From: Atractiella rhizophila
Taxonomy: Eukaryota
Reading direction: 5' to 3'
NCBI GenBank assembly: GCA_021432655.1
Contig: MU271598.1
Span: 1-40,737, forward strand
DNA: 40,737 nucleotides
The notes beneath the pieces were generated by a model that worked only from the letters and a program-made list of their open reading frames with translations, searched no databases and was not told the origin of the DNA. How positions within the stretch are numbered: position 1 is the first letter of the stretch; each line of letters begins with the position of its first letter. This document shows, piece after piece, positions 3,073 to 10,885 of the stretch. A program made the translations under genes and the position numbers.

Positions 3073-5188
3073 ATGCTCCGCTCAGTCGCCCGCGCTACCC
3101 CCCAACTCCCTTCCCTTGCGCTCCGCCAGCAACGGCGGCATGCCCACAAAATGCTCAAGTTCTCGTCAGAGGCAAGAGCTTCCATGTTGGCCGGTGTCGA
3201 CATCCTCGCCAAAGCGGTCTCTGTTACCCTTGGGCCAAAGGGAAGGAATGTTATCATCGAGCAGCCCTTCGGTGGACCCAAAATTACCAAGTTCGTCACT
3301 TTTCATTTTTTTCTTGGATAGCAAACTGACAACGGCAACCAGGGATGGTGTAACTGTCGCCAAGAGCATCACTCTTCAGGACAAGTTTGAGAACCTTGGT
3401 GCAAAGTGAGTATTACCGTACATTTAAGGGTGTTGTGGCGAAAGTAGGGGGAAATTGCATGACGCGTCCACCCGGCGTTGTCGTCGCACTTTTCCCAATG
3501 AAGGTCACGAAAGTGGCACCACTGTATTTTTTCAATCTTGTTCTGTGCTCCAAGCAAGAGCGAAACGGAGCAGTGGGAGATTTTTCTACTTGTCTTCCAC
3601 CCTCAAGTGAAGGAACGTGCTGACGTATCATTTCGCTTTTCAAGGTTGGTGCAGGATGTGGCGAGCAAGACGAACGAGATTGCTGGCGACGGTACTACGA
3701 CCGCTACCGTCCTCGCTCGTGCTATCTACTCGGAAGGTGTCAAGAACGTTGCCGCTGGTTGCAATCCAATGGACCTTCGTCGCGGTTCGCAGGCTGCCGT
3801 TGATGCTGTTCTCAAGTTCCTTGATAGCAACAAGCGGGTAATCACCACTTCCGATGAAATTGCTCAGGTAAGGCTTCTCCAGTCATACGAATCCAAGATG
3901 TTAAAAGGTGGGCTTCAGGTCGCTACCATCAGCGCGAATGGCGATGTCCATGTCGGCAGCCTGATTGCTCAAGCCATGGAGAAGGTTGGTAAAGAGGGAG
4001 TCATCACCGTTAAGGAAGGCAGGACTATCGAAGACGAGATTGAGATCACGGAGGGAATGCGTTTCGACCGTGGTTACATTTCTCCCTACTTCGTTACCGA
4101 CGTCAAGACCCAAAAAGTAGAATTCGAGAAACCTCTCATCCTGCTCTCTGAGAAGAAGATCTCCGCTATTCAGGATATCCTTCCTTCCCTTGAGATGTCC
4201 GCTCAACAACGACGGCCCTTGGTCATCATTGCTGAAGATGTTGACGGAGAAGCTCTCGCCGCTTGTATCCTCAACAAGCTCCGTGGTCAACTCCAAGTCG
4301 CTGCCGTCAAGGCTCCAGGTTTCGGAGACAACCGAAAATCCATCCTTGGAGATCTCGCCATTCTTACCGGAGGAACTGTCTTCACTGACGAGCTCGACAT
4401 CAAGCTTGACCGTGCCACACCTGACCTTCTCGGCTCATGCGGATCCCTCACCATCACCAAGGACGACACCGTCCTCCTTCAAGGCACCGGCACTAAGTCA
4501 ATGATCCAGGAGCGATGCGAACAGATCCGTGCCCTCATGAACGACCCCACTACCAGCGATTACGACAAGGGTAAGCTCCAGGAGCGTCTTGCTAAGCTCT
4601 CTGGTGGTGTTGCCGTCATCAAGGTCGGAGGTGCCAGCGAAGTTGAAGTCGGTGAGAAGAAGGACAGGTACGACGACGCGCTCAACGCTACCCGAGCTGC
4701 CGTCGAAGATGGTATCGTACCCGGAGGTGGAGTTGCCCTTCTGAAGCATGTTTTCCGTTCCATCCTTATCCCATCACTAATGTTTGGTCTCCAGGGCTTC
4801 CCAAATCCTGAAAGATATCAAGACTGCCAACTTCGATCAGTCCCTTGGTGTTTCCATCATCAAGTCGGCCCTCACCAAACCCGCCCGCACCATTGTCGAG
4901 AATGCCGGTGAAGAGGGATCCGTCATTGTCGGAAACCTGCTTTCGCAATACGGTGACAAATTCGAGATGGGCTACGATGCCGCAAAGGGTGAATACGTCA
5001 ACATGATCGAGCGCGGTATCCTGGATCCCCTCCTTGTCGTTAAGACTGCCCTCGTTGACGCTTCTGGTGTCGCCTCTCTCCTCGCCACTTCGGAATGCTG
5101 TGTCGTTGACGCTCCGGAGGAGAAGAGTGCTCCCGCCATGCCTGGAGGAATGGGCGGAATGGGAGGTATGGGAGGAGGAATGTTTTAA
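3073..5188 (+). CDS. HSP60: Mitochondrial chaperonin Hsp60 (GroEL family), 5 exons
   Basis: Presequence [24 protein letters not shown]; motifs [50 protein letters not shown]-terminal [14 protein letters not shown]. Introns at 3291-3342, 3406-3644, 3868-3918 and 4746-4794 (GC-AG). Confidence 0.98.
3421..3609 (+). other. Putative structured RNA element inside HSP60 intron 2
   Basis: Complementary segments read by eye: 3421-3432/3598-3609, 3442-3452/3581-3591, 3459-3465/3475-3481, 3491-3497/3574-3580, GNRA hairpin 3504-3517, 3536-3542/3553-3559, 3546-3551/3567-3572. Confidence 0.6.
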
Positions 5189-7803: not shown

Positions 7804-8539
7804 AGTTGGTCCAGAGATTCGTAAATGGATTCAAATTTTACTTTGCTAAAGAAGCGATAAGAAGGAGTTGCCAACTTCTCTCCATACCGTTTTTGTATTC
7901 TTTCGGGAAGAAGTGCATTACATGTACGACATAACTTACACATGCGTCTGGGATAGTTCGTGATGACAGTGAAGACGATTTCGACAATCAGGTCTCAAAG
8001 GTAAAAGCGCAGGCATTACGCTGTGAAAGCAGAAGACGACTGAAGGTACTTGCTGGCCACTGCTTGGCGGCGTGCTTCCCGACTGGAGGGGGCACAGAAA
8101 GCAGGACGGAACTGTGTTCTTGTAAATCCAAATCAACCTCTCCGTAGTGAAAAAGTGAGCATTGTTGCACTCTCTTTTACCCGACGAGCCACTCAAGTTG
8201 CTTTGTCTGCGTCTGTCATGACTACTGCGAGCACCCGCCGTGGTACTTCCCACATCACGAACCACTAGACCGGGTTTGTCCAGTTCGTGGATGTGTTCAC
8301 TTTGGTCGGGTATACTAGAGTTTTGGCGGATTGGAAAAGTTGGGTTTGAACGGCGCGATCTTCCAGCATCGCCGAACTCGGAGAGGAAGATGAAGAATTT
8401 CCACAACGACTCGACATTCTTTCACTCAAGGGCACGACCTCACTTGACCAGTTAGAGCTTCATCTCGTGCGCATTCCTGTGGGACCATCTCAGCCCCGTG
8501 ATCTAACCTAAACACAAGCAGAAAACAGCCTATTACGAC

Positions 8540-9361
8540 ATGGCGACTTTCTTTGCCTGGCTTCGCTCGCCAGCTGCGCGGGACTACTTTATGAGTACAC
8601 ACTTGTACATTTCTTAGCCCTATTTGGCATTGCGTATGAGGTCTAAATGCTTGTTTCGGTATGTGGTGAAGTTGGGGACCAGTAAGTCTTCCATTCTGTG
8701 TCACACGAGGACTGGTTGGGTTGAGAGTTGTGTGTGCAAAGGTAGCCAATTGGGGCCTTCCCCTGGCCGCCCTAGCAGACATTCGCAAAGAACCTGATCT
8801 CATTTCGGGTCCCATGACCACCGCTCTTGCTTCATACTCGTGAGTGGACTCCCCTCCCGTCTTTAGCTGCACGGGCTGAGGCCGAGAATAGAATGGTTTT
8901 TATGCGGTTTGGTGAGCCCTTTTCAGCGATCAATGAAAACGGTATGAGATGACGAATTGTGTATGATCAGCGTGGATGGTGCAACCTCGAAATTACTTGT
9001 GAGTCTGCTTTTTCGCCAACAGGGACGCTAGCGGGCTGAACAATGCGAATCATAGGCTCTTTGCATGGTGCTTTTCTTTCATTTACTATTCTTCAGGTCC
9101 CTAAAGCTGGTACTAGCCACGCAACAAACGCTTCGGCACAATCAGTCCAGTTGTTTCGGTTTCTGAACCACCATGGGTTTGTCTTCGCTCTCCTTTCACC
9201 TTCAACAGCTCAACTGATTTCGCACTGGCAACAGATATATAGGATCGGGGTCGGGTAAGAGCGCCATAGAGGATGGGAAGGCAGAAGCGAAGCATGCAGT
9301 AGAGGCGACGAAGGCAGAGGCTCAGCATCTTGTCAGTGCTGCTAAGAAAGAGCTGAAATAG
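8540..9361 (+). CDS. MPC1: Mitochondrial pyruvate carrier subunit 1, copy 1 (8 exons, 139 aa)
   Basis: Exons 8540-8604, 8672-8681, 8742-8839, 8892-8911, 8971-8998, 9056-9067, 9117-9176 and 9235-9361 (all GT-AG) give [98 protein letters not shown]..., which carries the MPC1 signatures STHFWGP.ANWG.P and VQPRNYLLFACH. Confidence 0.95.
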
Positions 9362-9566
9362 ACTCAGAACACCTCTTGGTTGGAGGGTGGAAGAGGGAGA
9401 TGGATGGGTTTACATGCTGTGCAAATTTCCACAACGACTCGACATTCTTTCACTCAAGGGCACGACCTCGCTTGACCAGTTAGAGCTTCATCTCGTGCGC
9501 GTTCCTGTAGACCATCTCAACCCCGTGATCTGACCTGAACGCAAGCAGAAAACAGCCTATTACGAC

Positions 9567-10387
9567 ATGGCGACTTTCTTTGCCTGGCTTCGCTCGCCAG
9601 CTGCGCGGGACTACTTTATGAGTACACATTTGTACATTTCTTAACCCTATTTGGCATTGCGTATGAGGTCTAAATACTTGTTTCGGTATGTGGTGAAGTT
9701 GGGGACCAGTAAGCCTTCCACTCTGTAACACGAGGACTGGTTGGGTTGAGAGTTGTGTGCACAAAGGTAGCGAATTGGGGCCTTCCGCTGGCCGCGCTAG
9801 CAGACATTCGCAAAGAACCTGATCTCATTTCGGGTCCCATGACCACCGCCCTTGCTTCATACTCGTGAGTGGACTCCCCTCCCGTCTTTAGCTGCACGGG
9901 TTGAGGCCGAGAATAGAATGGTTTTTATGCGGTTTGGTAAGCCATTTCTAGCGATCAATGAAAACGGAATGAGATGGTGAATTTGTGTATGATCAGCGTG
10001 GATGGTGCAACCGCGAAATTACTTGTGAGTCTGCTTTTCACCAACAGGAAGGCTAGCCCGCTGAACAATGCGAATCATAGGCTCTTTGCATGGTGCTTTT
10101 CTCTCATTTACTATGCTTTGAGTGTCTAAAGCTGGCATTTAGTCACGCAACAAACGCTTCGGCACAATCAGTCCAGTTGTTTCGGTTTCTGAACCACCAT
10201 GGGTTTGTCTTCGCTCTCCTTTCACCTTTAACGGCTCAACTGATTCCACATTGGCAACAGATATATAGGATCGGGGTCGGGTAAGAGCGCCATAGAGGAC
10301 GGGAAAGCAGAAGCGAAGCATGCAGTAGAGGCGACGAAGGCAGAGGCTCAGCACCTTGTCAGTGCTGCTAAGAAAGAGCTGAAATAG
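9567..10387 (+). CDS. MPC1: Mitochondrial pyruvate carrier subunit 1, copy 2 (same predicted protein as copy 1)
   Basis: Same 8-exon structure with intact splice sites; all exon differences I could find relative to copy 1 are synonymous. Confidence 0.93.
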
Positions 10388-10885
10388 ACTCAGAACACCT
10401 CTTGGTTGGAGGGTGGAAGAGGGAGATGGATGGGTTTACATGCTGTGCAAAAAATTTGTTCGATCCAATGGGCGTTGCGTCGTGATTTGGAGAACCAACG
10501 AGAAGTATATAGGAAGAACCAGGGATGCATTTCGAAATCGAAAATAAGTTAGATAAAGAAGCGATCAAACAGTCAGCAACAATTCAATCACTCCACCACA
10601 CACCGACATCAACATCAGACCGACAAAGAGTGCTAAAGCGTATGCCATCAACTAGTCAACGCGAAAATCGAAAGTTGGGTATAGGTATTGAGTCCCGCTC
10701 CATCTCATGATATCATAAACATCAATAAAGAGAGAAAGATAAGATGGAATGATCCTCAATCCATGATATATCGGACAAAGGTATGATGATCCGGCAGGTA
10801 TGCCATCTATCACTAATTAGCGGCGGCACCCAGTTCCGCAAGTTGAGCGGAGAGACCGGCCTGTTCCACCATGAGCAGTCAGCAC

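Follow-up and report, generated by a model that had tools for sequence, protein, structure and literature searches.

A self-complementary insert in the second intron of the HSP60 gene of Atractiella rhizophila, with a possible zipper-type architecture

The window analysed here, i.e. the whole stretch of 40,737 nucleotides (nt) from contig MU271598.1 (assembly GCA_021432655.1), belongs to the fungus Atractiella rhizophila (Pucciniomycotina, Atractiellomycetes) and carries on its + strand a five-exon gene for mitochondrial HSP60, with exons at 3073-3290, 3343-3405, 3645-3867, 3919-4745 and 4795-5188. The joined exons translate to a protein of 574 residues, the same sequence as P0003, which is named chaperonin GroL [Atractiella rhizophila] at NCBI. 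After P0003 itself, the best matches in a protein search are at most 90% identical across exon 4, and therefore no close relative is recorded. The subject of this work is intron 2 of the gene. In agreement with a preliminary description of the locus made from the DNA letters, this intron is 239 nt long, whereas introns 1, 3 and 4 measure 52, 51 and 49 nt, respectively.

Intron 2 is spliced precisely. The joint 3405>3645, at which 239 nt bounded by GT and AG are skipped, is present in one spliced contig each from X4, X5 and X8 (three of four runs), and these contigs, which also join 3290 to 3343, therefore establish that the intron is real and exactly removed; the run evidence consists of contigs, in which only the spliced joint is visible. 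The spliced contigs are near-identical to the window, with 0-3 differing letters per piece, and the remaining pieces in these runs have 5-9 differing letters and cover exon 3 only. Across the 220-260 or so exon bases covered by the X5 and X8 contigs, 2-4 letters depart from the window, so that there are variant strains. The RNA-like runs give no cover of the intron, to which no weight is attached here. X3 is represented by one 151-nt DNA record, identical to 3495-3645.

Two of the sibling introns have properties of their own. Intron 4 (4746-4794, 49 nt) is of the GC-AG type, with donor GCATGT, and this is the only boundary that reproduces the 574-residue P0003. The length of intron 3 (3868-3918, 51 nt) is divisible by three and its sequence has no in-frame stop, so its retention would add 17 residues without truncation. 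The near-identical spliced HSP60 contigs of X4, X5 and X8 (within 3250-3800) come from runs labelled as three other organisms, with a word depth in X4 in the thousands, which suggests that the fungus was present and active in those samples.

The excess length of intron 2 can be assigned to a single internal segment. When positions 3421-3609 (189 nt, hereafter the insert) are set aside, flanks of 15 and 35 nt remain, i.e. 50 nt in total versus 52, 51 and 49 nt for the sibling introns, and the branch-point consensus CTGAC stays in place at 3620-3624, as the preliminary description had stated. A metagenome scan on universal chaperonin motifs, from which 80 loci were kept among the matches listed, gave at least three fungal-like HSP60 loci (L001-L003) at 80% identity or above, again among the matches listed. 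In L001 and L003 an intron is present at the same codon and in the same phase (after ...FENLGA-K/R), being 53 and 44 nt long, respectively, and lacking the insert; L002 is intronless there. An intron at this site and in this phase in both L001 and L003 means that the intron is old and the 189-nt insert derived. The orthologous introns, on which the preliminary description had proposed to judge the structure, are thus short in the matches listed, and the comparison shows the insert to be apparently lineage-specific. In a crude intron survey of the window, comprising 44 candidate rows, neither a distribution of lengths nor a second long intron was established, the flanks of the 10 other long candidates checked not being coding-like.

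The self-complementarity of the insert is real, exceptional for this DNA and far above chance. On the + strand it folds better than all 300 shuffled versions of itself (z score -4.64), whereas on the - strand its z score is -1.74, with 15 of 300 shuffles as good. As a natural control, 98 other 189-nt windows from the + strand were folded; these have a mean z score of -0.17 (standard deviation 1.06) and a minimum of -2.85, so that none of the 98 reaches -3. The intron as a whole (3406-3644) has a predicted folding energy of -80.2 kcal/mol on the + strand, with z scores of -3.18 (1/200 shuffles as good) and -3.45 (0/300); the - strand values in two shuffle tests are -0.21 and -0.08. The proposal that the extra nucleotides form a domain folding on itself is in this regard borne out, also by the comparison with shuffled controls that had been suggested along with it. 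All nine stems that had been listed for it pair as drawn, including the stem 3442-3452/3581-3591 (11 of 11 pairs, 4 of them G-U) and the two stems of a possible pseudoknot (7/7 and 6/6 pairs), although the folding model covers nested pairs only and a pseudoknot is outside its scope.

The coordinates of the individual elements are collected in the table. The minimum-energy fold of the isolated intron has 76 pairs, of which 14 are G-U, and is predicted to consist of a rod (3421-3447/3586-3609) that leads into a four-way junction formed with hairpin A, a GNRA hairpin and hairpin B. It departs from the arrangement drawn originally in that the G-run is combined with 3490-3496 to give the long hairpin A; two of the stems drawn earlier, i.e. 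the small hairpin Ha (3459-3465/3475-3481) and the stem P3 (3491-3497/3574-3580), have a pair probability of 0.0 in the ensemble. A further, weak helix of 9 base pairs (bp) is predicted in the isolated intron between 3406-3417 and 3612-3624, i.e. between the donor GUGAGUAU and the branch-point region GUGCUGAC, with a probability of about 0.5 at all the temperatures tested in this model.

Table. Features of HSP60 intron 2 and its surroundings; helices and their probabilities are model predictions
Feature	Position	Strand	Remarks
HSP60 intron 2	3406..3644	+	239 nt, phase 2, GTGAGT...AG; spliced translation = P0003; joint in X4, X5, X8
Self-complementary insert (structured core)	3421..3609	+	189 nt; z -4.64 (0/300 shuffles), - strand z -1.74; 0/98 natural windows reach z -3; missing from the L001 and L003 introns
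P1 closing stem, 5' arm	3421..3432	+	pairs with 3598-3609; 11/12 pairs, 1 G-U; mean probability 0.78 (37 °C, isolated intron), about 0.01 with exon 2
P1 closing stem, 3' arm	3598..3609	+	pairing count and predicted fold
Inner closing stem, 5' arm	3437..3447 (3437-3440 and 3443-3447)	+	partner arm 3586-3594; two helices (4+5 bp) in the minimum-energy fold; 0.84-0.91 at 37 °C, isolated intron
Inner closing stem, 3' arm	3586..3594	+	minimum-energy fold
Hairpin A, about 20 bp	3448..3496	+	helices of 7+3+6+4 bp; 0.77-0.91 isolated, 0.83-0.90 with exons; sole element predicted stable in all contexts
GUCAC-GAAA-GUGGC GNRA hairpin	3504..3517	+	5/5 pairs; 0.99 in isolated intron, 0.03 in 3343-3720 at 37 °C
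Hairpin B	3519..3576	+	lower and upper stems of 7 bp each, separated by an internal loop; resembles 5' hairpin of S. pombe snR91; z -2.64 (+), -2.44 (-)
AGAUUU	3578..3583	+	aligned to snR91 H-box region; 5/6 of ANANNA, final A missing
Branch-point consensus CTGAC	3620..3624	+	sole CUGA of the intron; predicted branch-point A at 3623, 21 nt upstream of the 3' splice site
Exon 2, 3' end	3377..3402	+	predicted partner of intron 3516-3545, 23 bp, duplex -27.9 kcal/mol; complementarity at chance level

Taking these results together, the interpretation that we tentatively prefer is that intron 2 carries a lineage-specific insertion with a passive, zipper-type architecture, neither a sensor nor a gene. 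An ancestral phase-2 intron of about 50 nt would have gained, 15 nt downstream of its donor, the 189-nt self-complementary insert; in the isolated intron RNA the insert would adopt the rod and four-way junction described above, so looping out the extra sequence and leaving the donor and branch-point flanks about as far apart as in an ordinary short intron. It may be by folding on itself that the insert is tolerated and the intron remains spliced. That the fold brings donor and branch point together had been suggested before, and the predicted closing stems do set the 15-nt donor flank beside the 35-nt branch-point flank. We infer from the models that the fold may form in the pre-mRNA and aid splicing.

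Zipper stems have been described in introns of Saccharomyces cerevisiae, including those of RPS17B, RPL7A/B and others, in the available text of Rangan et al. 2025 (PMC12350175). By the positional rules given in that text, the predicted inner closing stem (3437-3447/3586-3594) lies within the range of a yeast zipper, having 9 bp and a linker of 31+25 = 56 nt. Like the S. cerevisiae stems, the stem in HSP60 intron 2 appears lineage-specific, and covariation is therefore hard to obtain for either. Unlike the yeast cases, the other HSP60 introns of the host fungus are about 50 nt long and a multi-branch domain of 189 nt would be looped out. P1, the outermost stem, known here from prediction, is closer to the branch point than the same text allows, lying 10 nt from CTGAC with a total linker of 15+10 = 25 nt, and so falls outside the S. 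cerevisiae zipper rules. In its available part, a further source (PMC8216456), which covers Ascomycota only, contains no HSP60 structure, and no literature was found on introns of Atractiella rhizophila.

The position of P1 is one of several points that weigh against a zipper role, which would itself rest on a predicted fold. In the isolated intron, the helix between the donor and the branch-point region could mask both signals and so hinder splicing. The G-U pairs and the strand asymmetry, which could reflect selection on RNA, could also come from mutation bias in place of such selection; the asymmetry could then stem from a C-to-T bias acting on the non-template strand, the gene being highly expressed. 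The predicted fold also changes when exon 2 is attached. In three such contexts (3343-3720, 3300-3800 and 3250-3900) the stems P1 and P2 and hairpin B fall to a probability of about 0.01 and hairpin A alone persists; the inner stem with the zipper spacing is likewise no longer part of the optimum. The conformer in which the 3' end of exon 2 pairs with the intron is calculated to be about 4-5 kcal/mol better than the intron-only fold, and it is the predicted optimum at all transcript lengths from 3540 onward.

The exon-intron helix itself has little to distinguish it. Although shuffling of the exon rarely yields a duplex energy as good as its -27.9 kcal/mol (3/81), natural windows from elsewhere in the HSP60 exons often do so (17/69), and the helix is therefore attributed to chance; a comparison of exon 2 with the intron by RNAduplex on the long sequences (212/1000) was uninformative. 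That a chance helix can displace the predicted intron fold illustrates how fragile fold prediction for this pre-mRNA is. Local alignment of exon 2 with the intron at the DNA level is not significant, with 62 of 300 shuffles as good, and the candidate origin of the insert as an inverted duplication of exon 2 was rejected on this result.

A foldback or MITE-like (miniature inverted-repeat transposable element) origin of the insert is plausible. The stronger proposal that the insert is a decayed transposon of this type, its hairpins being DNA-level remains of inverted repeats with no role in splicing or regulation, is considered unlikely, albeit deserving of weight. With such elements the insert shares a length of about 190 nt, terminal inverted repeats (the 12-nt ends pair at 11 of 12 positions, 10 of the pairs being Watson-Crick and one G-U), high self-complementarity and insertion into an existing intron that is short elsewhere. 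The similar behaviour of hairpin B on the two strands, and the residual folding tendency of the insert on the - strand, speak for this proposal. By contrast with typical elements, no target-site duplication was seen on reading the flanks of the insert, and no second copy was found in the 40.7-kb window or the 80 loci, in which there are chance matches of 9-14 nt only. The fold is also much better on the sense strand, and the symmetric loops hold 2 A-C mismatches versus 14 G-U pairs, a count that the folding algorithm itself favours. Fungal introner-like elements are another class of mobile sequence with relevant traits, in being longer than the genome norm and having unusually stable predicted folds, both of which are shared by intron 2. 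Unlike these elements, intron 2 occupies an ancestral position, as seen in L001 and L003, only its internal segment is extra, and it has no known sister copies.

Known RNA families offer one lead. A scan of the window against Rfam found no family at its gathering score, and hence no rRNA, in accord with the original remark that the structure matches no recognised family. The best match is to RF01443 (S_pombe_snR91, an H/ACA small nucleolar RNA, snoRNA), covering 3511-3628 on the sense strand at 29.9 bits versus a gathering score of 50, with an E-value that goes from 0.0014 for a search of 291 nt up to 0.0047 for one of 1 kb. No other match below threshold, whether in the window or in L001-L003, exceeds 23.7 bits, so the RF01443 match does stand above this noise, but it was not reported in the scan of the whole window. 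The possibility that intron 2 hosts a stable noncoding RNA released from the excised intron, either a divergent or degenerate H/ACA snoRNA akin to S. pombe snR91 or else some RNA not yet described, is in our view quite improbable, and the hosted RNA envisaged in the preliminary description now has this match, which is below threshold and without an ACA box, as its sole lead.

The resemblance to RF01443 lies in hairpin B. As with intronic H/ACA snoRNAs, the match is located in a spliceosomal intron on the sense strand, and the order of lower stem, loop and upper stem followed by AGAUU is that of the model; the aligned lower stem pairs differently at two places, and GGAGAUU is identical at the H-box region. 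The spacing from the upper stem to AGA is 18 nt, or 15 nt if C3533-G3562 pairs to close the upper stem; in an H/ACA snoRNA, both hairpins can hold a pseudouridylation pocket, at 14-16 nt from the respective box. In the minimum-energy fold, however, the internal loop is mostly self-paired, and its strands beside the upper stem, read from the alignment as AAACGGAG versus UUaCGgag in the model, differ, so the target selected would not be the same as that of RF01443. The second hairpin is cut to about 22-26 nt, versus 50 nt in the model, and has no pocket. There is no full ANANNA H box in the hinge, a motif scan of the intron finding ANANNA only at 3441. An ACA box is also missing: within the intron ACA occurs once, at 3420 and so close to the 5' end, there is none in the 3' part, including 3 nt from a possible 3' end, and the triplet aligned to ACA reads ACG (3623-3625), its A being the predicted branch point. 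On the score, the boxes, the truncated second hairpin and the differing loop strands, the match is not classed as an H/ACA snoRNA.

Background from other fungi can be read in two ways. According to the available part of PMC5824354, homology largely fails to detect the H/ACA snoRNAs of Pucciniomycotina; the same part of this source states that several H/ACA families known only from S. pombe, among which snR91 may count, are restricted to Schizosaccharomyces, and no relevant literature on snR91 was found. Other types of gene are not apparent in the intron. It has no boxes of a C/D snoRNA, as there is no.UGA.GA motif (C box RUGAUGA) and the only CUGA (the D box motif) is that of the branch-point CTGAC, at 3620; a scan of the intron gave neither a tRNA-like gene nor a terminator-like site, and its single promoter-like match is at chance level. 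Its open reading frames are as expected by chance only: residues 1-48 of the frame 3502-4746 have no relatives in a protein search, and the 89-residue frame 3354-3620, compared with 1.84 billion representatives, gives a single chance match, to a repeat protein (E 8.9e-4).

More broadly, the 189-nt domain might be a functional RNA of a type not yet described in Pucciniomycotina, either a stable intron-derived noncoding RNA, e.g. a highly divergent H/ACA-like guide with a single pocket, in which hairpin B would be combined with an AGA-type box, or a riboregulator that sets HSP60 splicing under stress through the intron-only and exon-paired folds; we regard this as very unlikely. Held alone, the proposal of a cis-regulatory switch, whether a thermosensor or one bound by a protein or ligand, that tunes HSP60 splicing under stress by exchange of the intron-only fold for other pairings, appears decidedly remote. 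The host is a heat-shock gene, the models do give two mutually exclusive conformers, one intron-only and the other exon 2-paired, which differ by about 5 kcal/mol, and the predicted accessibility of the donor in 3343-3720 is 0.31 at 10 °C and climbs to 0.78 at 37 °C. Against this, the stems keep their stability in the model, the pair probability of P1 being 0.76-0.78, and that of the hairpins 0.64-1.0, over 15-50 °C; no predicted stem is expected to melt within the physiological range. The energy gap between the competing pre-mRNA conformers is similarly flat, at -4.6 to -3.9 kcal/mol over the same range. These in silico results do not support the splicing thermometer or the temperature-driven switch that had been put forward, and the alternative stems from which a switch had been built fare no better, since Ha and P3 are not populated and the actual competitor, i.e. 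the pairing of exon 2 with 3516-3545, is at chance level by both the duplex and the alignment comparisons. Nor is there a riboswitch or other cis-regulatory match in Rfam, and the insert is not conserved among the orthologues listed.

Intronic RNA thermosensors, such as that of the yeast APE2 gene, and bacterial RNA thermometers are known systems with which HSP60 intron 2 has in common a structure close to splice signals and a location in a heat-stress gene. It differs from the APE2 type in that its stems are predicted not to melt at physiological temperatures, and in that its structure is between the donor and the branch point, whereas that of the APE2 type comes after the branch point and ahead of the 3' splice site.

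A reading without any biological structure, in which a long intron is complementary to itself by chance, is scarcely credible: the region was picked after its stems had been seen, and minimum-energy predictions shift with the flanks used, but none of the 300 shuffles or 98 natural windows comes near a z score of -4.64, and the limits of the tested region were set by the splice sites and by P1.

HSP60 intron 2 is thus a new example of a structured long intron, a kind that is already known; a new RNA class and a heat sensor are both weakly supported. Its interest is that fungi of this type hold their introns near 50 nt, so that a spliced intron of 239 nt is a natural test of how limits on length are evaded. 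If it is true that the closing stems are needed for splicing, the zipper logic of budding yeast would apply to a basidiomycete with short introns as well, and if the insert proves to be multi-copy in the genome, it would be an example of intron growth driven by transposons. Neither outcome, zipper or transposon, alters current concepts.

Some features away from intron 2 may be recorded. In L001, a tRNA gene (2305-2376, - strand, 61.8 bits) is present upstream of HSP60, some 160 nt from its start codon. Positions 8396-10439 of the window hold a tandem duplication, its period being about 1026 nt, which comprises six collinear repeat blocks (D1-D6), the blocks being 88-98% identical between the two copies. 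The window also contains an inverted repeat of 162 nt (I1, 6707-6868/32153-32314), the arms of which are 72% complementary and 25 kb apart, and which may represent a pair of paralogous gene segments that have diverged and are oppositely oriented.

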